From IMG/VR virus record IMGVR_UViG_2734482784_000001: a stretch of DNA of 18,381 bases. One strand, given 5' to 3'. Below, one piece after another: positions 1,164 through 16,933 of the stretch. Both the position numbers and the translations under genes were made by a program. Below the pieces are notes generated by a model. The model made no database searches and had not been told where the DNA came from. It was given only the letters and a program-made list of their open reading frames with translations. The stretch is from a virus (Duplodnaviria; Heunggongvirae; Uroviricota; Caudoviricetes). How positions within the stretch are numbered: position 1 is the stretch's first letter; each line of letters starts with the position of its first letter.

Positions 1164-3278
1164 GTGAATTTACAATATCGTCCAGTTCGGATGCCGGCTG
1201 CATTTCTGAAGATAAGGCATTTCGGTTCTCGTATTTTCCCCCTCATGCTCGTCAGTCCTGCGCGTAGTAAGAGACAGGACACTCACACTAATTTGTGTGG
1301 GCATGCTGTGCCTATGGGGGCAGGGAACTCAGTCCCGTGGGATCCGCTGGTGGCACCGTATGTTATTGAGCCTATGAACTGCCTGGCCTCGCGTGAATAC
1401 GACGCAGTGATATTTGTTGGCCCGGCACGAACCGGCAAGACTATCGGCCTGATTGACGGCTGGGTGATTTACAACGTGATTTGCGATCCTGCTGATATGC
1501 TGATCATTCAGATGACGGAGGAAAAAGCCCGCGAACACTCCAAAAAACGACTCGCCAGAACGTTTCGCGTCAGCCCGGAAGTGGTCAGTCGCCTGAGTCC
1601 GAACAAAAATGACAACAACGTTTATGACAGAACATTCCTTGCTGGCAACTACCTGAAAATCGGCTGGCCGTCAGTCAATATCATGTCTTCATCAGATTAT
1701 AAATGCGTGGCGCTGACGGATTATGACCGTTTTCCGGAAGATATTGATGGTGAGGGGGATGCCTTCTCTCTTGCCTCAAAACGTACCACCACATTTATGT
1801 CCAGTGGTATGACGCTGGTGGAGAGTTCCCCCGGCAGGGATGTGAAGGATGTGAAATGGCGACGGACTTCACCGCATGAGGCTCCACCAACCACGGGGAT
1901 CCTGTCGCTCTATAACCGTGGCGATCGCCGTCGCTGGTACTGGCCCTGTCCACACTGTGGTGAGTATTTTCAGCCCTGCGGCGATGTGGTTGCTGGTTTC
2001 CGTGATATTGCCGATCCTGTGCTGGCAAGTGAGGCGGCTTATATTCAGTGTCCTTCCTGTTCAGGACGGATTTTGCCTGAACAAAAACGCGAGCTGAACG
2101 GACGTGGGGTCTGGTTAGCCGCCAGTATCAATATCAAACCGGGCCATGATTATTACTTTTATATCCGCAGTGTGAACACCGTTGGCAAATCGGCATTCGT
2201 GGAGGCTGTTGGTCAGCCGAGTGATGACGCATCCGGCTATCTGGATTTTTTCAAAGGCGAGATAGGGAAAACCCATCTGGCTCAGGAGCTGTGGACGCAG
2301 ATTGATAACGGTCAGCTTGCGCCTGACCTGGCTGAAATCAGGACATCCATTACGGATGTCAGCAATGAAATCACACAGACCGTCAATAAGAAACTGGAAG
2401 ACCAGAGTGCAGCGATCCAGCAGATACAGAAGGTTCAGGTTGATACAAATAATAACCTGAACAGCATGTGGGCCGTGAAACTGCAGCAGATGCAGGACGG
2501 ACGCCTTTATATTGCGGGTATCGGTGCCGGTATTGAGAATACGCCAGCAGGAATGCAGAGTCAGGTGCTGCTGGCGGCAGACAGGATTGCGATGATTAAT
2601 CCTGCGAATGGCAACACAAAGCCGATGTTTGTTGGTCAGGGTGATCAGATATTCATGAACGACGTGTTCCTGAAACGCCTGACGGCTCCCACCATTACCA
2701 GCGGCGGTAATCCTCCTGCATTTTCCCTTACACCGGACGGGCGACTGACGGCGAAAAATGCGGATATCAGTGGCAGTGTGAATGCGAACGCCGGGACGCT
2801 CAACAATGTCACGATAAATGAAAACTGTCGGGTTCTGGGAAAACTGTCTGCGAACCAGATTGAAGGCGATCTCGTTAAAACAGTGGGCAAAGCTTTCCCC
2901 CGGGACTCCCGTGCACCGGAGCGGTGGCCATCAGGGACCATTACCGTCAGGGTTTATGACGATCAGCCGTTTGACCGGCAGATTGTTATTCCCACGGTGG
3001 CGTTTCGTGGCGCTAAACATGAGCGGGAGAATAACGATATTTATTCGTCATGCCGCCTGATAGTGAAGAAAAACGGTGCTGAAATTTATAACCGTACCGC
3101 GCTGGATAATACGCTGGTTTATACAGGTGTTATTGATATGCCTGCTGGTCGCGGTCACATGACGCTGGAGTTTTCGGTATCAGCGTGGCTGGTAAATGAC
3201 TGGTATCCCACAGCCAGTATCAGTGATTTGCTGGTTGTGGTGATGAAGAAATCCACAGCAGGTATCAGTATCAGCTGA
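1164..3278 (+). CDS. chimeric ORF: terminase large subunit (lambda gpA family) N-terminal region fused in frame to a lambda J-like host-specificity protein C-terminal region; deletion derivative
   Basis: Continuous 704-codon frame. Residues about 1-321 carry a Walker A box ([12 protein letters not shown]) and a CPHCG…CPSC zinc-ribbon-like motif as in lambda gpA. Residues from about 322 (nt about 2127) onward, starting near …[28 protein letters not shown] and including …[30 protein letters not shown]…, match the C-terminal third of lambda J as I recall it. The start is uncertain: GTG at 1164 (longest frame) or ATG at 1191, neither with a good ribosome-binding site. Stop TGA at 3276-3278. Confidence 0.7.
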
Positions 3279-3295
3279 ATTTTATAACCCATATG

Positions 3296-3322
3296 CGGGC
3301 GCCATTTCTGGCGCCTTTTTTA
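3296..3322 (+). terminator. rho-independent terminator after the chimeric ORF
   Basis: GGCGCC (3298-3303), loop ATTTCT, GGCGCC (3310-3315), then TTTTTT (3316-3321). Confidence 0.6.
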
Positions 3323-3345
3323 TTGCAGAAAAGCGAGAGGTAATT

Positions 3346-3945
3346 ATGCGTAAAGTTTGTGCAGCCATTTTGTCCGCAGCCATCTGTCTGGCCGTATCCG
3401 GTGCGCCTGCATGGGCGTCTGAGCAGCAGGCCACACTGAGCGCAGGGTATCTTCATGCCTCGACGAACGTTCCCGGTAGTGATGATCTGAACGGGATTAA
3501 CGTGAAATACCGTTATGAGTTTACGGACACGCTGGGGCTGATTACGTCATTCAGTTATGCCAACGCTGAAGATGAGCAAAAAACGCATTACAGCGATACC
3601 CGCTGGCATGAGGATTCCGTGCGTAACCGCTGGTTCAGCGTGATGGCGGGGCCGTCTGTGCGCGTGAATGAATGGTTCAGCGCGTATGCGATGGCGGGTG
3701 TGGCTTACAGCCGTGTGTCGACTTTCTCCGGGGATTATCTCCGCGTAACTGACAACAAGGGGAAAACGCACGATGTGCTGACCGGAAGTGATGACGGTCG
3801 CCACAGCAACACGTCTCTGGCGTGGGGGGCTGGCGTGCAGTTTAACCCGACCGAATCCGTGGCCATTGATATTGCTTATGAAGGTTCCGGCAGTGGTGAC
3901 TGGCGCACTGACGGTTTCATCGTGGGTGTCGGTTATAAATTCTGA
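3346..3945 (+). CDS. lom: Lom/Ail/PagC/OmpX-family outer-membrane beta-barrel protein
   Basis: ATG at 3346 with GAGAGG upstream. Signal peptide MRKVCAAILSAAICLAVSGAPAWA. The C-terminus …DIAYEGSGSGDWRTDGFIVGVGYKF matches lambda Lom as recalled, and it holds the lambda-like position between J and stf. Confidence 0.85.
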   Translation: MRKVCAAILSAAICLAVSGAPAWASEQQATLSAGYLHASTNVPGSDDLNGINVKYRYEFTDTLGLITSFSYANAEDEQKTHYSDTRWHEDSVRNRWFSVMAGPSVRVNEWFSAYAMAGVAYSRVSTFSGDYLRVTDNKGKTHDVLTGSDDGRHSNTSLAWGAGVQFNPTESVAIDIAYEGSGSGDWRTDGFIVGVGYKF

Positions 3946-3971
3946 TTAGCCAGGTAACACAGTGTTATGAC

Positions 3972-3999
3972 AGCCCGCCGGTTCAGGCGGGTTTTTTTG
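3972..3999 (+). terminator. rho-independent terminator after lom
   Basis: CCCGCC (3974-3979), loop GGTTCA, GGCGGG (3986-3991), then TTTTTTT (3992-3998). Confidence 0.7.
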
Positions 4000-4009
4000 T
4001 GGGGGGAAT

Positions 4010-7000
4010 ATGGCAGTACGGATTTCAGGTGTACTGAAAGATGGCGCAGGTAAGCCGATACAAAACTGCACCATTCAGCTAAAGGCCAGGCGCAACAGCA
4101 CCACGGTGGTGGTGAACACAGTGGCCTCAGAAAACCCGGATGAAGCCGGGCGTTACAGCATGGACGTTGAGTACGGTCAGTACAGCGTTATTCTGTTGGT
4201 GGAAGGCTTCCCGCCATCGCATGCCGGGACCATCACCGTGTATGAAGACTCACAACCGGGTACGCTGAATGATTTTCTCGGTGCCATGACGGAGGATGAT
4301 GTCCGTCCGGAGGCACTGCGCCGCTTTGAACTGATGGTGGAAGAGGTGGCGCGTAACGCGTCCGCAGTGGCACAGAACACGGCAGCCGCGAAGAAGTCAG
4401 CCAGTGATGCCCGCACATCAGCCCGTGAGGCGGCAACCCATGCGACTGATGCTGCGGACTCCGCACGCGCAGCCAGCACGTCAGCCGGACAGGCCGCGTC
4501 GTCGGCTCAGTCAGCGTCTTCCAGCGCAGGAACGGCATCAACAAAGGCTACTGAAGCATCAAAAAGTGCTGCCGCTGCAGAGTCTTCAAAAAGCGCGGCA
4601 GCCACCAGTGCCGGTGCAGCGAAAACGTCAGAAACGAATGCCGCAGCATCACAAAAATCTGCGGCCACTTCTGCATCCACCGCGACCACGAAAGCGTCAG
4701 AAGCTGCCACCTCAGCCCGGGATGCGTCGGCTTCAAAAGTGGCGGCAAAATCATCAGAAACGAGCGCAGCCTCGAGCGCCGGCAGTGCAGCTTCCTCGGC
4801 AACGGCGGCAGGAAATTCCGCGAAGGCCGCAAAAACGTCTGAGATGAATGCGGATAACAGCGCACAGGCGGCAGCAGACTCACAAACTGCATCGGCAAAT
4901 TCCGCGACAGCAGCCAAAAAATCAGAAACCAACGCGAAAAATAGTGAGTCAGCAGCAAAGGTCAGCGAAACCAACGCTAAAGCGTCAGAGAACAAGGCGA
5001 AAGAATATCTCGACAAGGTCGGGGGACTCGTCAGCCCGATGACGCAATACGATTGGCCCGTTGTTACTGGTAATGAGTCTTTTTACATAAAGATCGCGAA
5101 ACTTTCCGATCCCGGAAGCAACAATTGCCATGTAACGCTAATGGTTACTAACGGCGGTGACTACGGCTCCCCTTACGGAAACATTGACTTTATCGAGATC
5201 TCGGCGCGCGGTCTGCCTTCTTCGCTTACTGCTGATAATGTATCTCGTTACCTGAGTATACGCCGTTTAGGGCCAACCGGGCTAATCAATAGCATGCAAA
5301 TGCGTTACGGCCTGGTTAAAGATGATGGCTTTATTGAGGTTTGGGCCTTCCAGCGTGCATTTATCAACGGCGCAAAGGTTGCGGTACTGGCGCAGACGGC
5401 ACGCACGGAATTATACATTCCAGACGGATTTGTTAAGCAAACCGCCGCGCCTTCTGGATATGTTGAAAGCCCCGTTGTAAGGATTTACGACCAGTTAAAC
5501 AAGCCGACTAAAGCAGATTTGGGTCTTTCTAATGCTATGCTTACAGGCGCTTTCGGTCTTGGCGGTAGCGGGATATCAACAAACGGCAAGATGAGCGATG
5601 TAGAGATCTTAAAAGCTCTGCGTGACAAAGGTGGTCATTTCTGGCGCGGTGATAAGCCGACCGGAAGCACGGCGACCATTTATAGCCACGGTTCTGGTAT
5701 ATTCTCGCGGTGCGGCGATACGTGGTCAGCGATCAATATCGACTACTCAACCGCGAAGATTAAGATCTATGCCGGCAACGATGCCCGGCTTAACAACGGG
5801 ACTTTTAGCATCAATGAGCTATACGGCTCGGCAAACAAGCCGTCGAAATCGGATGTTGGACTTGGCAACGTAACGAACGATGCGCAGGTAAAAAAAACCG
5901 GCGATACAATGACCGGTGACTTGACAATCAAAAAAGGTACACCGTCAGTCTTCCTGCGGGCAGACAGTGGAGTCACCGCTTTGCGGTTTTATACTGGCGA
6001 TAACACAGAGCGCGGCATAATCTATGCTGGTCCTAACACTGATTCGCTTGGCGAAGTTCGCATCAGGGCAAAGACAGCAGGGGGGACATCAGGAGGGGAT
6101 CTTGTTGTTCGTCACGACGGGAGGGTTGAAGTCCGTGATCTCACAGTAGCGTATAAAATTAAAAGCAGAACGATTGAGATTGCAAATACCGACACTGACT
6201 CATCGGCAACTACGCTCAGCATCTATGGAGTACAGCACACGCCGTTGGTTTTAACGCGTTCTGGTTCTTCTGAAAATGTGTCCATTGGGTTTAAGTTAGA
6301 CAACATGAACCCAAAGTATCTTGGAATTGATACTAATGGGGATCTGGCTTTTGGTGAGAGTCCTGATCAGAAACAAAACAGCAAATTGATCACGCAAGCG
6401 AAACTCGACAAGGGATTAACGATTGGTGGTCAACTGGCTTTCAAAGGTACGACAGCGTTTTCAGCCGTTGCTACGTTCAGTGCCGGGATAGCAGGAGCCA
6501 TCGAGCCGGAAAACATTGACGGCCAGACGGTTAATCTTAACAACCTGACCATCATCAAGTCAGATGCCGGGGCAGTTAAATACTATATTTGTCCATCCTC
6601 TGCAGGTGGTGCAAATATTACCAATAAGCCTGACGGCATAGCCGGTAACTTTTTGCTCCGTGTAGAGTCGACTCGTAAGGTTAGGGATTCAGATTATGCG
6701 AACATGCAAACGCTGATTAACAGCGACACAAAACGTATATACGTTCGCTTTGTTGTTAATGGAAACTGGACAGCGTGGAGTCAGGTTGTTGTTTCCGGAT
6801 GGAATCAGGATATAACTGTCAGGTCGTTAACCACATCTAGTCCGGTAAAATCTGGCGGAGGGCGAATTGATGTCCTTGGAAGCACGTCAGACTATAGCAA
6901 AATGGATTGCTTTGTACGTGGGTTTGATAGCACCGGTAATTCTCTCGCGTGGGCGTTGGGTTCATCAGCCGGCGTAAGTAAGATGCTGTCGCTAAAAAAT

Positions 7001-7786
7001 TTCTTTAGCGGAGCTGAGATACTGTTAAATGGTAATGACGGCACGGTTCAACTCAAAACAGGTGCTGTTAACGGGGCTACAGCGCAGGCGCTCACTATCA
7101 ACAGGAATGAGGTTAACTCAACTGTTGATTTAACCCTTACAAAACAATCAGGGACTGGCAATCGTTTTGTTTTACAGAACTCAGGTAATGCAGAACTACC
7201 GTTTTCTGTCAGGGTGTGGGGTTCCAGTACTCGACAAAACGTTTTTGAGGTTGGCACGTCTGCTGCGTATCTGTTTTATGCGCAAAAAACGTCAGCAGGC
7301 CAGTTGTTTGATGTAAATGGCGCTATTAATTGCACAACGCTGAATCAGTCATCAGACCGCGACCTTAAAGACGATATTCTCGTTATCAGCGACGCGACGA
7401 AAGCAATCCGTAAAATGAACGGATACACCTACACGCTCAGGGAAAACGGGATGCCTTATGCTGGCGTTATTGCACAGGAAGTAATGGAGGCGATACCAGA
7501 AGCTGTGGGATCGTTTACTCATTATGGTGAAGAGTTGCAAGGTCCGACCGTTGACGGCAACGAGCTACGCGAAGAAACGCGCTATCTTAATGTTGACTAC
7601 GCCGCCGTGACGGGCTTACTTGTTCAGTTCGCCCGTGAAACAGATGATCGCGTTACCGCGCTGGAAGAGGAAAACACAACGCTACGTCAAAATCTGGCAA
7701 CAGCAGACACCCGGATCAGCACTCTGGAAAATCAGGTAAGCGAACTGGTTGCACTTGTCCGGCAGTTAACAGGAAGCGAACATTGA
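4010..7786 (+). CDS. stf: mosaic side tail fibre: lambda Stf-like N-terminal region with Ala/Ser-rich repeats, divergent distal region, C-terminal intramolecular-chaperone (peptidase S74-like) domain
   Basis: GGGGGAA then ATG at 4010. N-terminus MAVRISGVLKDGAGKPIQNCTIQLKARRNSTTVVVNTV… matches lambda Stf as recalled. Central region carries fibre-type motifs (…KKTGDTMTGDLTIKKG…). The C-terminus (…SDRDLKDDILVISDATKAIRKMNGYTYT…RYLNVDYAAVTGLLVQF…ALEEENTTLRQNL…) resembles the self-cleaving chaperone domain of endosialidase or T5-type fibres. Stop TGA at 7784-7786. Confidence 0.85.
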   Translation: MAVRISGVLKDGAGKPIQNCTIQLKARRNSTTVVVNTVASENPDEAGRYSMDVEYGQYSVILLVEGFPPSHAGTITVYEDSQPGTLNDFLGAMTEDDVRPEALRRFELMVEEVARNASAVAQNTAAAKKSASDARTSAREAATHATDAADSARAASTSAGQAASSAQSASSSAGTASTKATEASKSAAAAESSKSAAATSAGAAKTSETNAAASQKSAATSASTATTKASEAATSARDASASKVAAKSSETSAASSAGSAASSATAAGNSAKAAKTSEMNADNSAQAAADSQTASANSATAAKKSETNAKNSESAAKVSETNAKASENKAKEYLDKVGGLVSPMTQYDWPVVTGNESFYIKIAKLSDPGSNNCHVTLMVTNGGDYGSPYGNIDFIEISARGLPSSLTADNVSRYLSIRRLGPTGLINSMQMRYGLVKDDGFIEVWAFQRAFINGAKVAVLAQTARTELYIPDGFVKQTAAPSGYVESPVVRIYDQLNKPTKADLGLSNAMLTGAFGLGGSGISTNGKMSDVEILKALRDKGGHFWRGDKPTGSTATIYSHGSGIFSRCGDTWSAINIDYSTAKIKIYAGNDARLNNGTFSINELYGSANKPSKSDVGLGNVTNDAQVKKTGDTMTGDLTIKKGTPSVFLRADSGVTALRFYTGDNTERGIIYAGPNTDSLGEVRIRAKTAGGTSGGDLVVRHDGRVEVRDLTVAYKIKSRTIEIANTDTDSSATTLSIYGVQHTPLVLTRSGSSENVSIGFKLDNMNPKYLGIDTNGDLAFGESPDQKQNSKLITQAKLDKGLTIGGQLAFKGTTAFSAVATFSAGIAGAIEPENIDGQTVNLNNLTIIKSDAGAVKYYICPSSAGGANITNKPDGIAGNFLLRVESTRKVRDSDYANMQTLINSDTKRIYVRFVVNGNWTAWSQVVVSGWNQDITVRSLTTSSPVKSGGGRIDVLGSTSDYSKMDCFVRGFDSTGNSLAWALGSSAGVSKMLSLKNFFSGAEILLNGNDGTVQLKTGAVNGATAQALTINRNEVNSTVDLTLTKQSGTGNRFVLQNSGNAELPFSVRVWGSSTRQNVFEVGTSAAYLFYAQKTSAGQLFDVNGAINCTTLNQSSDRDLKDDILVISDATKAIRKMNGYTYTLRENGMPYAGVIAQEVMEAIPEAVGSFTHYGEELQGPTVDGNELREETRYLNVDYAAVTGLLVQFARETDDRVTALEEENTTLRQNLATADTRISTLENQVSELVALVRQLTGSEH
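4370..5010 (+). repeat. low-complexity Ala/Ser/Thr/Lys-rich imperfect tandem repeats inside stf
   Basis: Reiterated motifs such as AAKTSETNA, AAKKSETNAKNSESAAKVSETNAKASENKAKE and SASTATTKASEAATSA at the protein level, with correspondingly GC-rich repetitive DNA. This region generates several long spurious ORFs in other frames. Confidence 0.6.
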
Positions 7787-7960
7787 TATCCTTCAAGCTC
7801 TGAAGGAGGCTGTTCCCGGTACGTTCAGACTGTTGTTGAGCTGGAAATCGCAACGGAGGAAGAAACCTTGTTGCTGGAAGCCTGGAAAAAGTATCGGGTG
7901 TTGCTGAACCGTGTTGATACGTCAACTGCACAGGATATTGAATGGCCAGCACTGCCGTAG
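7787..7960 (+). pseudogene. tfa: orphan 3' remnant of a tail-fibre assembly (tfa) gene
   Basis: Directly after the stf stop and in the same frame: [57 protein letters not shown] then TAG at 7958-7960. The …[18 protein letters not shown]…DIEWP… block is the conserved C-terminus of E. coli Tfa proteins as I recall them. There is no start codon, ribosome-binding site or Tfa N-terminal part. Confidence 0.6.
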
Positions 7961-8057
7961 GGTAAAACATATAAATTCTATAATTAGATGTATCTTTCCA
8001 TTTACGGCAAGGAAGGGGGCTTGGAAGACGTAAAGCATCTCACACCGAGATTATTTT

Positions 8058-8648
8058 TTATATGTCAGGTGTCTGAAGTTTTGCTTTGGCTCTTAAAATG
8101 GTTTGCCGCGAGGTTTTGAATTCCCGGGCAATGGCACTTATACTTACACCTGACTTAATTCGTTCGAATACCACCTGTTTCTGTTCTTCATTTAACACAG
8201 GTGGTCGACCAAAACGTTTCCCTGCGCCGCGGGCTCTTACTATCCCGGAATGAGTGCGTTCAAGTAAAAGGTCTCGTTCAAATTCAGCGACTGCTGAAAT
8301 TACGTGCATCATCATTTTTCCTGTTGGACTGGTCAGGTCAATGCCCCCCAATGCTAAGCAATGCACTCTGATACCTGTTTCGGTCAGTTGTTCCACTGTT
8401 TTCCTGATATCCATTGCATTACAACCAAGGCGATCCAGTTTTGTCACAATCAATTGATCACCACATTTCAGGCGAGCAAGCAACCGGTTAAAACCAGGAC
8501 GCTCACTGGTTGCTGCTGAGCCGCTAATGTGTTCTTCGATTATTTGCTGAGGTTTGATTTTAAAACCTGCACTTTCGATTTCCCGGCGTTGATTTTCGGT
8601 GGTCTGATCCAGCGTTGATATCCGACAGTAAGCAAAAATTCGAGACAT
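8058..8648 (-). CDS. pinQ: serine recombinase of the DNA-invertase family (PinQ/PinR type), 196 aa
   Basis: ATG at 8648-8646 on the minus strand, TAA at 8060-8058. Product [31 protein letters not shown]…[45 protein letters not shown] has the resolvase/invertase N-terminal catalytic domain and a C-terminal helix-turn-helix. It converges on the stf and tfa remnant, as pinQ does relative to tfaQ in K-12. Confidence 0.9.
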
Positions 8649-8964
8649 AGTGAGACTCTATACGAAATTGGTGTTCATATCATAATGCATCTCAGAAAAT
8701 AATTTTGATTATTTTTGTGCATATTTGTATGTACACGTTCGAAAATAAACGAATGCGTATGCAACCCCGTAACTTTGGTGAGACCCAAAATCGATTTTGT
8801 GAAAAATGGCTTTAACTCGGTTTGTTTTTCGAGTTCCGGGCGGACTCAAGGAAGAAGAATAGTGTTGCGTGTTATTTTAACCAGATTTCAAGTTGTTTGG
8901 TCGTGGAAAAGTGGAGCAAAATGTTGTTAAAGTGGAAAAATGATAAAAAAGTAAGTTTATTATA

Positions 8965-9198
8965 TTACATTTTACCATTTAAATTTTGGTTGTCTTTAAG
9001 AACTGATATCGCTGTTTGTAATAATTCTTTGTTATCCAGCCATGATTTTTTCTTTATGTTTCCTTCAATGTAATCAAGCAATGTTCTGGTATTGATAGGT
9101 CTTCCCTGTTTTGCTACTTCCACTACAGCATCCCCTAGGATAATTCTTACTTCAGGAAGCTGCGCAGGGAACCACTTTAGGGTGTCTTTTTATTTCAT
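8965..9198 (-). pseudogene. ydfK: ydfK/ynaE-family prophage cold-shock gene with an ochre stop at codon 3
   Basis: The minus strand reads ATG AAA TAA AAA GAC ACC CTA AAG TGG… giving M K * K D T L K W F P A Q L P E V R I I L G D A V V E V A K Q G R P I N T R T L L D Y I E G N I K K K S W L D N K E L L Q T A I S V L K D N Q N L N G K M *. This is a 77-codon YdfK-like frame whose third codon (plus-strand 9190-9192) is TAA. The ORF is absent from the six-frame track because of this stop. Confidence 0.7.
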
Positions 9199-9959
9199 GA
9201 AGATATTCCTTAAAATATTATTGATTTTCATTGCGATATTGTATGTCTGATTCAGGATATGTTGACTTATACATCGGTTTTGTCTGGGTTATTGGATATG
9301 CCAATCCCTAATTTTATTAGGGCATGACTAAAAATGCTGAATATGATAAGGAGAGAAGTGATTATCAGTATGCTGTTCATATAGCCTCGAATTAGTAATG
9401 TGTTATATATGATATAGTTGACAATTTTATCTTGGGTGTTCTTAAAGTTCGTAGATAAACATTGTCGTTTCAGGTATACAGGAATGCTAACAGGTGGCGG
9501 CAAAAATCAGGCGGTTTATGGCGCAATCTGAAGTGGCAACTGCAAACTATCTTATGCAGAGACTCTACACGGATTGGGTTTAAAAGTATACATAGATAAC
9601 AGTTTTTATCTGAAGAAGAAAAATATCAAGGTGATATAGCCTATATGCCTTTGATGTGGAGGAATGAATGTGATGGGAGTGATGTATCTGAATAGTTGAA
9701 AAACCGCAGACACACCTTATGCAAGAACGTGCTGCGGTTGGCTGGTAAATTTTTCGATAGTGCGAGTATTGAATGATTTCCAGCCGTTATTGATTTTACG
9801 CGTAAATCCATGAAAAAACTACTTATCTGTTGGGGAGTTTTTTGGGGCATATATGGGACAGAAATAGGCCCCAGATAGACACTGAGATCGAACTTAGGAT
9901 GCTTTTAAAAAAATGCAACTATCTGAAAAAACCTAGAAAACGCCAAGGAAACCACAGGA

Positions 9960-9990
9960 TGGGAAAAAACACCTGTGAATTATGGATTTC
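9960..9990. other. approximate prophage right-end junction with the chromosome, inside ydfJ
   Basis: The ydfJ frame opens only at ATG 9982; two codons upstream is an in-frame TGA (9976-9978), and the expected N-terminal part of the transporter, including its first helix, is missing. Upstream DNA is AT-rich phage-type sequence. The exact crossover point cannot be set without the other prophage end. Confidence 0.4.
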
Positions 9991-11265
9991 CAGTTATATT
10001 CGCTCGGCGCAGCGTTAGTGTTTCATGAAATATTTTTTCCTGAATCATCAACGGCAATGGCGTTAATTCTGGCAATGGGAACCTACGGTGCAGGTTATGT
10101 GGCGCGTATTGTCGGAGCATTTATTTTCGGCAAAATGGGCGACAGAATAGGGCGTAAAAAAGTGCTCTTTATTACCATCACCATGATGGGGATCTGTACC
10201 ACCTTAATTGGTGTGTTACCGACCTATGCACAGATTGGTGTTTTTGCCCCCATCTTGCTGGTGACGCTGCGTATTATTCAGGGATTGGGTGCAGGTGCGG
10301 AAATTTCCGGTGCCGGTACGATGCTGGCGGAATATGCGCCAAAAGGTAAGCGCGGAATTATCTCCTCATTTGTGGCTATGGGAACTAACTGCGGAACTTT
10401 AAGCGCAACGGCAATCTGGGCCTTTATGTTCTTCATTCTCAGTAAAGAGGAACTGCTGGCGTGGGGATGGCGTATACCGTTCCTGGCGAGCGTTGTCGTG
10501 ATGGTCTTTGCTATCTGGTTGCGTATGAATCTGAAAGAAAGCCCGGTTTTTGAGAAGGTTAACGACAGCAACCAACCGACAGCAAAACCTGCACCTGCTG
10601 GTAGCATGTTCCAGAGCAAATCCTTCTGGCTGGCAACAGGGCTGCGTTTTGGTCAGGCGGGTAACTCAGGTTTAATTCAGACTTTCCTTGCGGGCTATTT
10701 AGTGCAGACGTTATTGTTTAACAAAGCAATTCCAACATATGCATTGATGATCAGTTCGATTCTCGGCTTTATGACCATTCCGTTCCTTGGTTGGTTATCC
10801 GATAAAATTGGTCGCCGGATCCCGTATATTATTATGAATACCTCCGCGATTGTGCTGGCATGGCCAATGCTTTCTATCATCGTAGATAAAAGCTATGCCC
10901 CGAGCACCATTATGGTTGCACTGATTGTGATTCATAACTGTGCGGTGCTGGGATTATTTGCTCTGGAAAATATTACCATGGCAGAAATGTTCGGCTGTAA
11001 AAACCGCTTTACCCGGATGGCTATTTCTAAAGAAATTGGTGGTCTTATCGCTTCCGGTTTTGGTCCTATCCTGGCGGGTATTTTCTGCACCATGACGGAA
11101 TCCTAGTATCCGATCGCCATTATGATCATGGCATATTCAGTGATTGGTTTAATCTCTGCGCTGAAAATGCCAGAAGTGAAAGACCGTGATTTAAGTGCGC
11201 TGGAAGACGCCGCGGAAGATCAACCGCGTGTTGTAAGAGCTGCGCAACCTTCCAGAAGTCTGTAA
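9982..11265 (+). pseudogene. ydfJ: MFS (metabolite:H+ symporter family) transporter gene, 5'-truncated by prophage insertion and interrupted by an in-frame amber codon
   Basis: A 374-codon frame (MDFQLYSLGAALVFHEIFFPESS…GDRIGRKKVL…FCTMTES) stops at TAG 11104-11106. The same frame continues for 52 further sense codons (YPIAIMIMAYSVIGLISALKMPEVKDRDLSALEDAAEDQPRVVRAARPSRSL) to TAA 11263-11265. 374+1+52 = 427 codons, the size I recall for K-12 YdfJ. Confidence 0.8.
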
Positions 11266-11274
11266 ATCCTCAAT

Positions 11275-11305
11275 CCCTTCTCTTACCGGAGAGGGGATTT
11301 TTATT
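11275..11305 (+). terminator. rho-independent terminator after ydfJ
   Basis: CCCTTCTC (11275-11282), loop TTACCG, GAGAGGGG (11289-11296) with one G-U wobble, then ATTTTTATT. Confidence 0.6.
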
Positions 11306-11353
11306 CATATAACAAAACATGTAGCTTGCCATATTTATATTTAAGGAATTGTT

Positions 11354-12814
11354 ATGGGAAATAATTTGTTATCAGCAAAAGCGACACTCCCTGTTTATGA
11401 TCGTAATAACCTGGCCCCAAGAATTGTTCATTTAGGCTTTGGTGCATTTCACCGTGCGCATCAGGGCGTGTATGCCGATATTCTTGCTACAGAACATTTC
11501 AGTGACTGGGGATATTATGAGGTCAACTTAATCGGCGGCGAACAGCAAATTGCCGATTTACAGCAGCAAGATAATCTTTATACCGTTGCGGAAATGTCGG
11601 CCGATGCGTGGACGGCTCGCGTCGTTGGTGTCGTTAAAAAAGCCTTGCACGTACAGATGGATGGCTTAGAAACCGTGTTGGCTGCGATGTGTGAACCGCA
11701 AATCGCGATTGTCTCTCTGACAATCACCGAAAAAGGGTATTTCCACTCTCCGGCGACCGGACAGTTAATGCTCGATCACCCGATGGTCGCTGCCGACGTG
11801 CAAAATCCCCACCAGCCGAAAACAGCAACAGGGGTGATTGTTGAGGCGCTGGCTCGCCGTAAAGCGGCAGGACTTCCCGCATTTACCGTCATGTCATGTG
11901 ACAACATGCCAGAAAACGGTCATGTTATGCGTGACGTTGTCACTTCCTACGCGCAAGCCGTTGATGTAAAACTGGCACAATGGATCGAAGATAACGTGAC
12001 TTTCCCATCAACAATGGTGGACCGTATTGTGCCCGCAGTGACAGAGGATACGCTGGCGAAAATCGAACAACTTACCGGTGTGCGCGATCCTGCTGGCGTT
12101 GCCTGTGAACCTTTCCGCCAGTGGGTAATAGAAGATAATTTTGTTGCCGGACGTCTGGAATGGGAAAAAGCGGGAGCAGAACTGGTTAGCGATGTACTGC
12201 CTTATGAAGAGATGAAGTTGCGCATGCTCAACGGCAGTCATTCATTCCTGGCGTATTTGGGTTATCTTGCCGGATATCAGCACATTAATGACTGTATGGA
12301 AGATGAACATTATCGTCATGCGGCGTATGGCTTGATGTTGCAGGAACAAGCGCCGACGCTGAAAGTGCAGGGCGTTGATTTGCAGGATTACGCTAACCGA
12401 TTAATTGCACGCTATAGCAACCCGGCGTTACGTCATCGAACCTGGCAGATTGCGATGGATGGCAGCCAGAAATTGCCACAGCGGATGTTGGATTCTGTTC
12501 GCTGGCATCTGACGCATGACAGCAAGTTCGATCTGCTGGCGCTGGGCGTCGCGGGTTGGATGCGTTATGTCGGTGGTGTTGATGAACAGGAAAATCCGAT
12601 AGAAATCAGTGACCCACTGTTACCTGTTATTCAGAAGGCTGTACAAAGTAGTGCCGAAGGGAAAGCGCGCGTCCAGTCATTGCTGGCGATTAAGGCGATC
12701 TTTGGTGATGATTTGCCAGCCAATAGCTTGTTTACTGCAAAAGTGACGGAAGCGTACTTGTCTTTATTAGCGCATGGCGCGAAAGCGACCGTGGCAAAAT
12801 ATTCCGTGAAGTAA
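11354..12814 (+). CDS. ydfI: mannitol-dehydrogenase-family oxidoreductase (long-chain polyol or mannonate dehydrogenase-like), 486 aa
   Basis: AAGGAA then ATG at 11354. N-terminal dinucleotide-binding signature …[18 protein letters not shown]…. Length and synteny match K-12 ydfI. Confidence 0.9.
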
Positions 12815-12842
12815 AAAAAGCAATGCCGCCATCGGCGGCATT
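12813..12842. terminator. shared hairpin between convergent ydfI and ydfZ; the U-tract is on the ydfZ (minus) side
   Basis: AATGCCGCC (12822-12830), loop ATC, GGCGGCATT (12834-12842). An A-run at 12813-12820 on the plus strand becomes a U-run after the hairpin for the minus-strand ydfZ transcript. Confidence 0.55.
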
Positions 12843-12849
12843 CACACGC

Positions 12850-13053
12850 TTAGTTCATGCCGAGACGAATCAGGTCCAGTGGTGCCAGTTTCTCTTCACA
12901 ACCTTCAACAACTACGGTTTTTCCGCGGCGGATTTGCTCAGCGGTCAGACCTTCAGTATCAATCGACAGGATCTTGCCAGTGTGACCGGTGCCGCTAACC
13001 ATAACACGGCTGCCAGTGGTGATTGCGTTACGGTTACGATCGTAGGTCGTCAT
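12850..13053 (-). CDS. ydfZ: small protein YdfZ (putative selenium-binding protein), 67 aa
   Basis: ATG at 13053-13051 with AAGGAG upstream on the minus strand; [67 protein letters not shown]; TAA stop. Size and synteny match K-12 ydfZ. Confidence 0.85.
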
Positions 13054-13134
13054 AGGTGTTTTCTCCTTTCTGATTTACAGTCGAAGCCCACGTAACGGGC
13101 GCAATATAAATACTCCTGTCGAGTGAAATATTTT

Positions 13135-13148
13135 TTGTTTTTGATCAA
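13135..13148 (-). promoter_or_regulatory. candidate FNR site (TTGTT-N4-ATCAA) of a class II-type ydfZ promoter
   Basis: TTGTTTTTGATCAA at 13135-13148 matches the FNR consensus TTGAT-N4-ATCAA in 9 of 10 half-site positions. AT-rich -10-like hexamers (TATTTA, TATATT on the minus strand, plus-strand 13103-13114) lie at the right distance for a site centred near -41.5. ydfZ is a known FNR-activated gene. Confidence 0.4.
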
Positions 13149-13229
13149 GCTCACATCTTTTTTGATGCATGCATGAGCCATAAGGCGGGGGAAAAGACTC
13201 TCACCCCGGATGGGATGAGAGGAAATGAA

Positions 13230-13916
13230 TTACTCTTCGCTAAACCAGTCGCTATTTTCCTGGCGGATCTGGCGCACGGATTCGCTGATTTCCTGCAAAT
13301 GTTGCGTCATTGCACGTTCTACCGCATCGCCATCACGTTTTTGCAGGGCAGAGAAAATATCAAGATGCTGGCGTAACAGCATTTCTGGTGGAGAAACGTG
13401 GTCGAAACTCATATAGCGCACGCGATCAACGGTCGCTTTCAGGTTCTCAATGGTATCCCACGCCAGTTGACAGTCGGCAATCTGCGTCAGGAGTTGATGG
13501 AAGTTGTCATCAAGTTCAAAAAAATCATCCAGTTGCTTGCGCTCAATGGCAATGCGTTGCTGGTGAAGATTTTGTTCCAGTTGGTAGCACTGGCTTTCGG
13601 TAATCATGCTCGCCGCCCGACGCGCCACCGCGCACTCAATGGCCTGACGGATAAAACTGCCGTTGCGCACCTGGGCCATGGAAATTTTGTTGACGTAGCT
13701 GCCACGCTGCGGACGAATTTGAATCAGGCCGTTTTCCGCCAGTTTAATAAAGGCTTCACGAACCGGCTGGCGTGACACATTGAAACGAACAGAAACTTCT
13801 TTTTCCGACAACGGTGTGCCTGGTGCAATCAGGCAATGGACAATGTCGCGACGAAGAATACGATAAATCTGCTGATTGACAGGCTGTGTGGGATTAAGTT
13901 GCGTTTCGACGGTCAT
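13230..13916 (-). CDS. rspR: GntR-family (FadR-type) transcriptional regulator, 228 aa
   Basis: ATG at 13916-13914, TAA at 13232-13230. N-terminal winged helix-turn-helix (…[39 protein letters not shown]…) and C-terminal ligand-binding domain. Size and synteny match K-12 ydfH (rspR). Confidence 0.85.
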
Positions 13917-13978
13917 TCGTTCTTGCTTGTGAGTGAGTTAACTGCATGAGTCTACCACTTTTTTGTGACAAGCAATAA

Positions 13979-13996
13979 CCCGGCAGTTACGCCGGG
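13979..13996 (-). terminator. weak hairpin downstream of ydfG
   Basis: CCCGGC (13979-13984), loop AGTTAC, GCCGGG (13991-13996). On the minus strand it is followed by a moderately U-rich stretch. No clean U-tract. Confidence 0.35.
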
Positions 13997-14004
13997 TATA
14001 AAAA

Positions 14005-14751
14005 TTACTGACGGTGGACATTCAGTCCGGCATAGCTTTGGGTAACCGGCATCATTTCCAGGGTATTGATATTGACGTGAGCAGGCAGCGTTGACACCCA
14101 CCAGACGGCTTCGCTGACATCTTCTGGCGTCAATGCAACGGTATTTTGATAGGTTTTTTCCACTTTACCGTCATCGCCTTTAAAGCGGACATTGGAAAAC
14201 TCGGTGCCACCCACCAGACCCGGCTCGATGTCGGTGACGCGCACCGCCGTACCATGCAGATCCGTACGCAGATTCAGGCTAAACTGACGAACAAACGCTT
14301 TCGTCGCACCGTAAACGTTACCACCGGCATACGGCCAGCTACCTGCCGTTGAGCCAATGTTAATAATATGACCATGATTACGTTCAACCATACCCGGTAA
14401 GACGGCGCGCGTCATATATACCAGGCCTTTATTGTTGGTATCAATCATCGTTTCCCAGTCTTCAACGCTGGCTTTATGCGCAGGCTCCATGCCCAACGCC
14501 AGGCCGGCATTATTTACCAGGATATCAATATTGCTCCACTCGGCAGGGAGCGATGCCAGCATCTCTTCAATAGCGGCGCGGTTGCGAACGTCCAGTTGGG
14601 CGATATACAGATTATCTCCCAGTTCGTCTTTTAACTCCTGCAACCGTTCCTGACGACGGCCAGTGGCGATAACTTTATGCCCTTGTTGAATAAAACGACG
14701 AGTAATGCATTCACCAAAACCTGCCGTTGCTCCAGTTACTAAAACGATCAT
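14005..14751 (-). CDS. ydfG: NADP-dependent short-chain dehydrogenase/reductase (3-hydroxy acid / malonic semialdehyde reductase), 248 aa
   Basis: SDR glycine motif at the N-terminus (MIVLVTGATAGFG). ATG at 14751-14749 with GAGGA 8 nt upstream. The ORF-track start at 14766 is a TTG-initiated 5-codon extension. TAA at 14007-14005. Confidence 0.9.
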   Translation of the reverse strand: MIVLVTGATAGFGECITRRFIQQGHKVIATGRRQERLQELKDELGDNLYIAQLDVRNRAAIEEMLASLPAEWSNIDILVNNAGLALGMEPAHKASVEDWETMIDTNNKGLVYMTRAVLPGMVERNHGHIINIGSTAGSWPYAGGNVYGATKAFVRQFSLNLRTDLHGTAVRVTDIEPGLVGGTEFSNVRFKGDDGKVEKTYQNTVALTPEDVSEAVWWVSTLPAHVNINTLEMMPVTQSYAGLNVHRQ

Positions 14752-14887
14752 CTCACTGTTCCTCAACGCTTTTGTGTGTCAATAACATAGCACGGGATGC
14801 TTAAGAGCGGGTAATACTGGATTGCAAGATTGCACTCCGTTATCAGTAAGCCTACGCTATGGAACACCTCGCGTTCAGGAGAAGAAA

Positions 14888-16933
14888 ATGACAACAATGA
14901 ATCCTTTCCTTGTGCAAAGCACACTGCCGTATCTGGCTCCTCATTTTGATCAAATTGCCAATCATCACTATCGCCCGGCATTCGATGAGGGAATGCAGCA
15001 AAAGCGGGCAGAAATTGCTGCCATCGCGCTTAACCCGCAAACGCCTGATTTCAACAATACTATTCTGGCACTGGAACAAAGCGGAGAATTACTTACCCGC
15101 GTTACCAGCGTCTTTTTTGCGATGACTGCGGCGCATACCAATGATGAATTACAGCGTCTTGATGAACAGTTTTCCGCTGAACTGGCGGAACTGGCTAATG
15201 ATATCTATCTGAACGGTGAATTATTCGCGCGGGTAGATGCTGTCTGGCAGCGCCGTGAATCCCTGGGGCTTGATAGTGAATCCATCCGCCTGGTGGAGGT
15301 GATTCATCAACGTTTTGTCCTTGCCGGAGCCAAACTTGCGCAAGCTGATAAAGCAAAATTAAAAGTACTGAATACAGAAGCTGCGACACTGACCAGTCAG
15401 TTTAACCAGCGATTACTGGCAGCAAATAAATCCGGCGGTCTGGTTGTGAACGATATCGCGCAGCTGGCAGGAATGAGTGAGCAAGAGATTGCGCTGGCGG
15501 CAGAGGCGGCTCGCGAGAAAGGTCTGGATAACAAATGGCTGATTCCGCTGCTGAATACCACCCAACAACCGGCGCTTGCCGAGATGCGCGATCGTGCGAC
15601 GCGTGAAAAACTGTTTATTGCGGGCTGGACGCGAGCGGAAAAAAATGATGCCAATGATACCCGCGCTATCATTCAACGTCTGGTAGAGATTCGCGCACAG
15701 CAGGCGAAACTGCTTGGTTTTCCTCATTATGCCGCATGGAAAATCGCCGATCAGATGGCAAAAACACCTGAAGCAGCACTTAACTTTATGCGGGAAATTG
15801 TTCCAGCGGCGCGTCAACGTGCGAGCGATGAATTAGCCTCCATACAGGCGGTTATTGATAAGCAGCAGGGCGGGTTTAGCGCGCAGCCGTGGGACTGGGC
15901 ATTTTATGCCGAACAGGTACGGCGGGAGAAATTTGATCTTGATGAGGCGCAGCTCAAGCCATATTTTGAATTAAACACGGTGTTGAATGAAGGTGTATTC
16001 TGGACCGCGAATCAGCTCTTCGGTATTAAGTTTGTCGAACGTTTTGATATTCCTGTCTACCATCCTGACGTTCGTGTGTGGGAAATTTTTGATCATAATG
16101 GCGTGGGACTGGCGTTATTTTACGGTGATTTCTTCGCCCGTGATTCAAAAAGCGGCGGTGCATGGATGGGCAATTTTGTTGAGCAATCAACGCTTAATGA
16201 AACGCATCCGGTAATTTATAACGTCTGCAATTATCAGAAACCCGCTGCCGGTGAGCCTGCGTTGTTACTCTGGGATGATGTAATAACCTTATTCCATGAA
16301 TTTGGTCATACGCTGCACGGCCTTTTTGCCCGCCAGCGTTATGCCACGCTTTCCGGCACCAACACGCCGCGTGATTTTGTCGAATTTCCGTCGCAAATCA
16401 ACGAACACTGGGCAACGCATCCGCAGGTATTCGCTCGCTACGCCCGGCATTATCAGAGCGGGGCAGCAATGCCTGACGAACTGCAACAGAAAATGCGTAA
16501 TGCCAGCCTGTTCAACAAAGGGTATGAGATGAGCGAACTGCTTAGCGCCGCACTTCTCGATATGCGCTGGCATTGCCTGGAAGAAAACGAAGCAATGCAG
16601 GATGTCGATGATTTTGAATTGCGGGCGCTGGTGGCGGAAAATATGGATCTTCCTGCTATACCGCCACGCTATCGCAGCAGTTATTTCGCCCATATTTTTG
16701 GTGGCGGATATGCTGCAGGTTATTACGCTTATCTGTGGACGCAAATGTTGGCCGATGATGGTTACCAGTGGTTTGTTGAGCAGGGCGGATTAACGCGTGA
16801 AAATGGGCAGCGTTTTCGCGAGGCGATCCTTTCCAGAGGTAACAGCGAAGATCTGGAACGCCTGTATCGACAATGGCGCGGTAAGGCTCCTCAGATTATG
16901 CCGATGCTGCAACATCGTGGCTTGAACATATAA
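14888..16933 (+). CDS. dcp: peptidyl-dipeptidase Dcp (zinc metallopeptidase, M3 family), 681 aa
   Basis: AGGAG then ATG at 14888 (MTTMNPFLVQSTLPYLAPHFDQI…). HEXXH zinc motif (LFHEFGHTLHG). The ORF-track start at 14822 is a TTG-initiated upstream extension. TAA at 16931-16933. Confidence 0.9.
   Translation: MTTMNPFLVQSTLPYLAPHFDQIANHHYRPAFDEGMQQKRAEIAAIALNPQTPDFNNTILALEQSGELLTRVTSVFFAMTAAHTNDELQRLDEQFSAELAELANDIYLNGELFARVDAVWQRRESLGLDSESIRLVEVIHQRFVLAGAKLAQADKAKLKVLNTEAATLTSQFNQRLLAANKSGGLVVNDIAQLAGMSEQEIALAAEAAREKGLDNKWLIPLLNTTQQPALAEMRDRATREKLFIAGWTRAEKNDANDTRAIIQRLVEIRAQQAKLLGFPHYAAWKIADQMAKTPEAALNFMREIVPAARQRASDELASIQAVIDKQQGGFSAQPWDWAFYAEQVRREKFDLDEAQLKPYFELNTVLNEGVFWTANQLFGIKFVERFDIPVYHPDVRVWEIFDHNGVGLALFYGDFFARDSKSGGAWMGNFVEQSTLNETHPVIYNVCNYQKPAAGEPALLLWDDVITLFHEFGHTLHGLFARQRYATLSGTNTPRDFVEFPSQINEHWATHPQVFARYARHYQSGAAMPDELQQKMRNASLFNKGYEMSELLSAALLDMRWHCLEENEAMQDVDDFELRALVAENMDLPAIPPRYRSSYFAHIFGGGYAAGYYAYLWTQMLADDGYQWFVEQGGLTRENGQRFREAILSRGNSEDLERLYRQWRGKAPQIMPMLQHRGLNI

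Follow-up and report, generated by a model that had tools for sequence, protein, structure and literature searches.

The stretch of DNA discussed here, referred to below as the window, comprises the 18,381 nucleotides (nt) of the viral record IMGVR_UViG_2734482784_000001 (Caudoviricetes), and the element in question is a side tail fibre gene of the lambda type, stf, together with the remains of the tail fibre assembly gene tfa that follow it. The stf gene is located on the plus strand, between positions 4010 and 7786; its open reading frame (ORF) starts with ATG, comprises 1258 codons and ends with a TGA stop codon at 7784–7786, and thus the large fibre ORF reported in an earlier note, made from the sequence alone, is real and intact. 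The product is 99.9–100% identical to the RefSeq coding sequence 'prophage tail fiber N-terminal domain-containing protein' of Escherichia coli HS (WP_000290867.1) and matches tail-fibre families of PHROG; elsewhere RefSeq names this fibre 'pyocin knob domain-containing S74 family peptidase' or 'prophage tail fiber N-terminal domain and S74 family ...'. A junction filler of 43 nt (7781..7823, plus strand) lies between the end of the fibre homology and the tfa 3' remnant, a pseudogene that occupies positions 7824..7960 on the same strand. NCBIfam gave no match for either protein.

The first third of the fibre was described in that note as similar to lambda Stf, and this was borne out by Pfam, since the domain phage_tail_N (PF08400) aligns over its full length with residues 1–134 (E 2e-72). 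Residues 1–94 also match a tail fiber protein of known structure (PDB 9e7m, E 1e-51) and, as in other lambdoid Stf proteins, the N-terminal tail-fibre domain is present and the gene is placed after J and lom. This attachment domain is followed by a stalk rich in alanine, serine and threonine that extends to approximately residue 325, and both form the proximal module (4010..4983, plus strand). The stalk had been said to carry Ala/Ser-rich repeats; the composition is indeed biased, with 72–80% of Ala, Ser and Thr between residues ~115 and 300, but Tandem Repeats Finder detected no tandem repeat in the DNA of this region, which is simply of low complexity. The N-terminal domain and the Ala/Ser-rich stalk are shared with lambda and with the stfQ-tfaQ-pinQ (Qin) and stfR-tfaR-pinR (Rac) loci of E. 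coli K-12. In contrast with these loci, the distal two thirds of stf in the window are unrelated, the protein ends in an S74 domain, and Tfa codons 1–146 are absent.

To delimit the modules, blastn alignments of the window to 54 related loci were used; these loci included 50 IMG/VR contigs picked by an exact pattern across the junction, as well as lambda, E. coli HS and three isolated phages. The region 3309–4983, which includes lom and the 5' third of stf (residues 1–325), is conserved among the related loci, and lambda matches up to 4851 only. In about two dozen loci the match extends to 4981–4983 and then breaks; from 4984 to 6815 these loci, mEp460 among them, carry unrelated sequence, and the match resumes at 6816. 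A variable central module of residues 326–935 (4984..6814, plus strand) is delimited by these breaks; the guanine-plus-cytosine (GC) content is 56–63% in 4200–4950 versus 42–52% in the distal part of the gene. The switch to a distal module of lower GC content had therefore been correctly perceived, although the break was expected at 5010–5040 and is found at 4983 for the family and at 4851 for lambda; nor is the distal part a single module as proposed, given the second internal break at 6815. From 6816 to ~7950 the sequence, which encodes residues 936–1258 and includes the tfa remnant, is again common to the related loci. The first part of this conserved block, which starts at 6816 in many loci, is a distal beta-rich region ahead of the chaperone domain (residues 936–1111; 6815..7342, plus strand), presumed to be the tip or receptor-binding part of the fibre. 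Additional left breakpoints were detected by blastn among the related loci at ~7067 and at 7343; the latter corresponds to residue 1112, exactly where the chaperone domain begins, and is the breakpoint of PhiR70_1, whose match to the window covers only 7343 onwards. Because the breaks recur at the same places in the relatives, the distal fibre is itself mosaic and includes at least two modules; the smallest mobile unit is the chaperone domain with the filler and the tfa remnant. In phages of the T5-like, rV5-like and Dhillonvirus-like groups, the fibre tips show 40–67% amino acid identity to the tip and chaperone region.

The C-terminal region (7343..7780, plus strand) is formed by a Peptidase_S74 intramolecular chaperone domain and a coiled coil, as indicated by Pfam, by its sequence motif and by its homologues. 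The earlier note had proposed a domain of this type at the end of the fibre; PF13884 is in fact detected at residues 1115–1166 with 45.5 bits, above the cut-off of 22 bits (E 9.2e-12), and it is present in all the homologues listed, whereas coiled-coil-type matches from Pfam and PDB were obtained for residues 1215–1256. The motif SSDRDLKDD, which contains Ser1115 and Lys1120, aligns with SSDRRIKKD of the distal subunit of the S16 long tail fibre (PDB 6F45), and its Ser, Asp and Lys residues are invariant in an alignment of 26 homologues with 55–97% identity. The lysine is found five residues after the serine, the same spacing as Ser1264/Lys1269 of T5 pb1; in that protein the two residues form a dyad and the change S1264A blocks autoproteolysis (PMC4690869). 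Ser1115 is accordingly the predicted scissile residue; from it to the C-terminus there are 144 residues, and the domain is located at the extreme C-terminal end, as the family requires. The S74 fibres of the T5 type also show a C-terminal domain of ~133–144 residues with a scissile Ser and a Lys five residues after it, and no separate chaperone gene; a mixed alpha/beta part with a long coiled-coil helix behind it is predicted for the window's fibre, as in those of the T5 type. On the other hand, identity to the T5-like fibres is low (~41–54% in the tip and chaperone region), the N-terminal module of the window's fibre is lambdoid, and its cleavage is a prediction.

Homology with the closest S74 fibres outside this lineage stops at 7780, after the residues ...Gly-Ser-Glu. 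The 43 nt that follow contribute the last codon (His1258), the TGA stop codon and a non-coding spacer of 37 nt (7787–7823), and they are invariant except for two single-nucleotide polymorphisms (SNPs) across all the informative loci. It had been proposed that the tfa remnant abuts the stf stop codon in the same frame; it is in frame, but the spacer stands between them, and the in-frame relation carries no weight because its prior probability is approximately one in five (a one-in-three choice of frame, combined with 13 codons free of stops). An inverted repeat that had been placed at 7789–7794/7800–7805 with a length of 6 base pairs (bp) does exist, although it is of 7 bp (TCCTTCA/TGAAGGA, 7789–7795 and 7801–7807), so that the coordinates given for it were off by one base, and it is at chance level. 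A hairpin acting as a terminator or as a structured element was considered and discarded, given that no terminator was found, that the fold has a z-score of -0.38 versus shuffled sequence, and that repeats of this kind are common in the window (14 versus ~5.7 in shuffles). Rfam gave no match in the whole window.

Past the stf stop codon, the reading frame is open for 57 codons, up to the TAG at 7958–7960. Residues 13–57 of this frame match positions 86–130 of the 131 of the Caudo_TAP profile (E 3.7e-19), and the homology to lambda tfa, tfaQ and tfaR, as well as the collinearity with K-12, all begin at 7824, which corresponds to Tfa codon 147. The remnant therefore comprises TfaQ codons 147–191 plus the stop codon, and of the 57 surviving tfa codons previously counted 45 are homologous. 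The proposed similarity of 7787–7960 to the C-terminus of Tfa is beyond doubt from 7824 onwards, where the DNA is 98.7% identical and collinear with the tfaQ-pinQ-dcp region of K-12. Neither of the two outcomes that the earlier note had named as refutations, a fibre C-terminus without a chaperone match and a 3' stretch unlike Tfa, was thus obtained, and its finding is right in essence. The lack of a start codon was also correctly noted: there is no in-frame ATG, and the only candidates in this frame are TTG at 7868 and 7871, GTG at 7898 and TTG at 7901. In comparison with a full Tfa, only the conserved C-terminal helices are retained, without the N-terminal domain that binds the fibre; RefSeq labels the remnant as a partial pseudogene ('tail fiber assembly protein, incomplete, missing N-terminus'), and at this locus of the K-12 chromosome tfaQ is of full length. 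It has been reported, in a summary of work on Mu Tfa, that the conserved C-terminal helical domain is involved in oligomerization and the variable N-terminal domain in fibre binding (PMC9608196). Since the surviving part corresponds to the oligomerization domain, the likeness of tfa 3' ends between phages is accounted for, and the remnant alone could not be a chaperone. Its translation appears unlikely. An ORF of 84 residues on the minus strand (7716–7970) overlaps this region, and its start is beyond 7960, where the related loci diverge.

The remnant, of 137 nt, is ~90–95% identical to every resident tfa. Among the loci it is continued by at least six C-terminal tails of the Tfa type, i.e., PALP (as in TfaQ), PAVPVME (as in lambda), PTNPVRE, PEEPDTV, PVAPIG and VNPVWPPPSKR, at least eight unrelated contexts are found downstream of ~7947–7966, and the polymorphisms inside the remnant are shared patchwise among loci. 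The variety of tails and contexts suggests repeated homologous crossovers inside the remnant. In agreement with a role of this region in exchange, lambda was shown to acquire Qin and Rac DNA through stf/tfa homology, and one third of the Rac recombinants had crossed over in tfa (De Paepe et al., PMC3945230). Many of the related loci also have a series of two to four tfa 3' fragments, ~0.7–1 kb apart, that start at Tfa residues 132, 137, 156 or 161; repeated fragments were recorded in 15 loci (L009, L021, L022, L032, L036, L037, L046, L053, L056, L057, L061, L063, L078, L098 and L099), a methyltransferase gene lies between tfa fragments in L057, L061 and L131, and in L061 there is a DinI fragment as well. 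It looks as if cassettes had entered the 3' end of tfa repeatedly.

The junction is widely distributed. Around 779 of 5426 complete E. coli genomes (about 14%) cover at least 80% of 7787–7960, and 819 E. coli genomes match 7000–7823. The stop codon, the filler and the joint to tfa are identical in the isolated phages Ayreon (MF807953), mEp460 (JQ182728) and PhiR70_1 (PV340577), which share with the window the junction and the C-terminal cassette; Ayreon matches along the entire stf gene with 86–87% identity, whereas the central modules of mEp460 and PhiR70_1 differ from that of the window. In all three phages the DNA past the remnant is different, and they are complete phages and not a defective prophage. 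All of the 50 IMG/VR contigs found by pattern have the junction, as does, in a second sample collected by protein similarity, every locus ending in ...LTGSEH that has downstream sequence left; it also occurs elsewhere on the chromosome, in prophages that are heavily decayed. Of the 49 informative IMG/VR loci, all have a tfa match that begins at residue 147 of lambda Tfa, and none has residues 1–131; the second sample, which is less biased, shows the same start and likewise lacks these residues, and the complete genome of Ayreon contains Tfa residues 147–194 only. Since isolated phages have it, and ~14% of the E. coli genomes carry it at more than one chromosomal site among them, the junction is older than this copy of the prophage: it is a single old junction that now circulates widely, and the swap was not made in this genome.

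The sequence around the junction is also strikingly uniform. Across 7655–7834 the nucleotide diversity (π) is ~0.01–0.03, with 0.00–0.01 at third codon positions (47 distinct sequences), versus 0.10–0.15, and 0.2–0.3 at third positions, in the flanks. The simplest reading of this invariance is a single and fairly recent origin of the block, for which no diverged recombination partner exists; the flanks would be more diverse because they import variation from other S74 fibres and from other tfa genes.

A comparison with other prophage fibres had been proposed as a way to find the donor and the joint, and it led to a group of loci designated type B (L101, L102, L113, L117–L125), which places the joint at 7780/7781. 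These loci belong to temperate phages of ~50–55 kb, with a terminator and then an integrase gene after the fibre gene. Their fibres have 1105–1155 residues and an S74 domain but not phage_tail_N. Those of L101 and L102 are 79–80% identical to the window's fibre over its full last 323 residues (936–1258), up to ...LTGSE, and the others show 57–71% identity, mostly over the last 180–255 residues. Type B fibres end in ...LTGSEE and a TAA stop codon, followed by an intrinsic terminator and the integrase gene, with no tfa fragment; the window diverges from L101 and L102 exactly at the last stf codon. Within 7560–7780 the coiled coil of the window is seven codons (21 nt, one heptad) longer than in L101, L102 and L119. 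Judging from these alignments, type B is the best candidate for the donor lineage, in which case the transfer would have occurred from type B to the lambdoid locus. The module swap suggested in the earlier note is supported by these results, i.e., the full-length tfaQ at the same locus of K-12, the terminator and integrase at the end of type B, and the lack of any S74-stf locus with Tfa residues 1–131.

Another group of loci, type C (L128–L141; for example, positions 89–5316 of L131), also combines a Stf N-terminus of the lambda type, an S74 fibre and a tfa 3' remnant without the Tfa N-terminal domain. The order of the genes is however different: a 790-residue protein with the Stf N-terminus, an ORF of 93 residues, a gene for an S74 fibre of 346 residues with its terminator, an ORF of 102 residues for a predicted membrane protein, and the tfa remnant. 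Here the S74 fibre is a separate gene product, only 42–48% identical to the one in the window, and ends in LSAI(D/E)AALASK. The type C junction is independent of that in the window, because its tfa remnant begins at residue 156. Two separate junctions, both without the Tfa N-terminal domain, support, though they do not prove, the notion that S74 tips do not need Tfa.

From the above, it is proposed that the locus carries a self-chaperoned lambdoid Stf and a scar of tfa, derived from a single non-homologous joint that was then spread by homologous recombination; we assign to this reading a probability of roughly 85%. The N-terminal domain of the fibre would dock on the tail as it does in lambda, and the last 144 residues would nucleate trimer folding from the C-terminus, by analogy with the K1F endosialidase and T5 pb1. 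The chaperone would then cut itself off at Ser1115, activated by Lys1120, again by analogy; if so, self-chaperoning and cleavage would give a mature fibre that ends at about residue 1114 and needs no separate Tfa. Autocleavage and independence from Tfa in vivo are thus expected from the related proteins. Regarding the origin, an S74 fibre gene, probably donated by temperate phages of the lineage with a terminator and an integrase after the fibre, would have been joined by its 3' end, in one non-homologous event, into a lambdoid tfa at codon 147. The joint would pass through the 43-nt filler, which also provides the stop codon, and the event would have cut away the old stf tip and the fibre-binding domain of Tfa. 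Afterwards the cassette would have moved by homologous recombination, with a left crossover anywhere in the conserved 5' third of stf or within the cassette, and a right crossover within the 137-nt remnant against the tfa of the recipient. The remnant would then be an untranslated scar that acts as a passive right homology arm, and 4010–4983 would be the left arm. What the comparisons establish directly is which domains are present, how the junction is built and where it occurs, and the lack of the Tfa N-terminal domain; the order of these events and the role of the tip in receptor binding are inferred.

Several points weigh against this proposal. The side fibres of lambda are dispensable for plaque formation, and because of this Ayreon and mEp460 are no proof that Stf functions without Tfa; moreover, Tfa may be supplied in trans by another prophage in the same cell. 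No source for the filler was found in lambda, in the K-12 Qin prophage or in ~140 related loci, apart from chance matches of 10–11 nt. The diversity analysis was carried out partly on loci that had been chosen by the exact junction pattern, a choice that accounts for some of the low diversity; divergent E. coli alleles chosen without it showed the same invariance of the junction block. Finally, the fold of the chaperone was not confirmed by modelling: the AlphaFold model of residues 936–1258 as a monomer has a predicted local distance difference test (pLDDT) value of 54 and a predicted template modelling score (pTM) of 0.27, and Foldseek with this low-confidence model gave no match at E ≤ 0.001 in PDB, which holds solved intramolecular chaperone domains such as 4UW8 and 3GW6. 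A poor model is expected, since the chaperone domain is an obligate intertwined trimer that was modelled as a monomer. The model shows short helices, a long beta-hairpin and a terminal helix of 57 residues (262–318 of 323), and these elements follow one another as described in the literature for the T5 chaperone; given the low confidence of the model, this is not counted as evidence.

Other explanations for the remnant have been considered. It could be expressed as a small Tfa formed by the C-terminal helices, through read-through of the TGA or from the TTG codons at 7868 or 7871, the frame being under selection. The frame is open for its 57 codons, and the remnant is open in nearly all loci, a GGAGG sequence is located 8–11 nt upstream of the in-frame TTG codons, and the sequence on both sides of the junction varies unusually little. 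Nevertheless, gene conversion by intact copies of tfa would be expected to keep the frame open, no ATG is available, and the codon at 7868 is TCG in many alleles; both SNPs of the filler are non-synonymous when read in the tfa frame, and in locus L015 the remnant carries a frameshifting deletion. Selected read-through is at odds with a stop codon that is TGA followed by T, and TAA in one strain, and the added residues would be attached to the chaperone domain, a part that is lost from the fibre in any case. Considering in addition that the fibre-binding domain is missing and that RefSeq classifies the remnant as a pseudogene, this explanation is highly improbable. A related possibility is that the block 7655–7834 and the remnant are kept for a function, be it as a recombination adaptor that makes self-chaperoned tips portable, as a Tfa C-terminal peptide of ~30 residues, or as a cis-acting RNA or DNA element that aids fibre expression. 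Nothing points to a function at the nucleotide level in 7655–7834 (no Rfam match, terminator or stable fold), and we regard the idea as very unlikely.

The vicinity of the invertase gene pinQ raises the question of whether a Pin invertase made the junction or uses it, with the inverted repeat as the crossover site, in the way tail-fibre segments are inverted in Mu, P1 and e14. The gene pinQ (8058..8648, minus strand; Pfam Resolvase and HTH_7, named pinQ in RefSeq) is intact and lies 98 nt downstream of the remnant, the filler has its 7-bp inverted repeat, and stf exchange has been tied to invertases in the literature (discussion of PMC3945230). However, a search for the gix/pix-type crossover consensus (gix/hix/cix), with up to three mismatches allowed, gave no match anywhere in the 18.4-kb window. 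Since there is no recognizable crossover site in the window, pinQ is without an obvious substrate here. Neither paired 26-bp crossover sites nor an alternative gene set, the attributes of an invertible tail-fibre segment, were found, and there is no inverted second set of stf and tfa ends among the ORFs. The gene is convergent to tfa, with its 5' end and enhancer facing away from the junction; the identical junction of Ayreon and mEp460 has no pin gene nearby; and the inverted repeat does not exceed the chance level. A junction made by Pin was rejected given the empty consensus search and the phages without pin; this explanation is hardly credible, and pinQ is only part of the context and had no part in making the junction. 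A last alternative is that the swap was local and recent, in the Qin prophage of this strain, and that stf is decaying with the rest of the prophage. The prophage is certainly defective, with the terminase A gene fused to J at 2111–2116 and the head and tail genes gone, and insertions of the IS1, IS2 or IS3 families of insertion sequences (IS) interrupt the same stf gene, at the same locus, in several other E. coli strains. These insertions indicate that the allele is decaying in some lineages; in the window the ORF of 3.8 kb is intact, and a local swap is made very unlikely by the same junction being found in isolated phages and in a considerable fraction of the E. coli genomes, where it occupies several chromosomal sites.

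The proposal of a single old joint spread by homologous recombination is therefore retained, and in this context the locus corresponds to ordinary mosaicism of phage tail fibres; a large class of these fibres is already annotated in RefSeq and the finding would not surprise a specialist, nor does it change any current view of phage biology. No paper describing the fixed S74 Stf/filler/tfa remnant junction as such was found in the literature. The locus is nonetheless a clean natural example of how two solutions for fibre folding, a separate Tfa and a built-in chaperone that is cut off, are swapped at one locus, and of a redundant chaperone gene reduced to the part that is still useful as recombination homology. 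For the engineering of lambda-type particles with new host ranges, the natural fusion points at about residues 325, 936 and 1112 seem to be tolerated, and the locus also suggests that S74-type tips may be grafted without a tfa gene. With regard to annotation, it explains the short 'tail fiber assembly protein, partial' pseudogenes that follow S74 fibres in hundreds of E. coli genomes.

As for the genetic context, the region 4010–8100 of the window has a counterpart in E. coli EC0880B with 100% identity and one in E. coli HS with 99.9%. The collinearity with K-12 MG1655 extends from 7824 to 16268, with 98.7% identity; position 16268 is the end of the K-12 segment that was compared and lies inside dcp. 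The stretch in common includes the tfaQ 3' end, pinQ, ydfK, ynfT, a ydfJ truncated by the prophage, ydfI, ydfZ, rspR, ydfG and dcp. Because of this collinearity from 7824 on, the fibre locus is assigned to the right-hand end of a cryptic E. coli prophage of the Qin type, at the same chromosomal site by the truncated ydfJ as Qin in K-12. Upstream of stf, the ORFs encode the C-terminus of J and then, according to Pfam, an Ail/Lom protein. The DNA between 1308 and 2116 corresponds to the terminase large subunit and is joined at 2111–2116 directly to the distal part of J, as revealed by comparison with phage Ayreon and by Pfam. Approximately 16 kb of head and tail genes are deleted at this point, with an overlap of ~6 bp, and this spot is affected by another deletion in E. 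coli HS. Given that the prophage has lost these genes, stf would be here a reservoir allele and no part of a working virion. The deletion gives rise to an ORF of 704 codons (1164–3278) that combines the terminase ATPase (Pfam GpA_ATPase, residues 54–317) with the distal part of the tail-tip protein J. On the other side of the locus, ydfJ (9982–11265), which encodes a transporter of the major facilitator superfamily, lacks its N-terminus; the prophage is inserted in this gene, as in K-12, and the listed ORF at 9982–11106 covers just part of the annotated ydfJ remnant.

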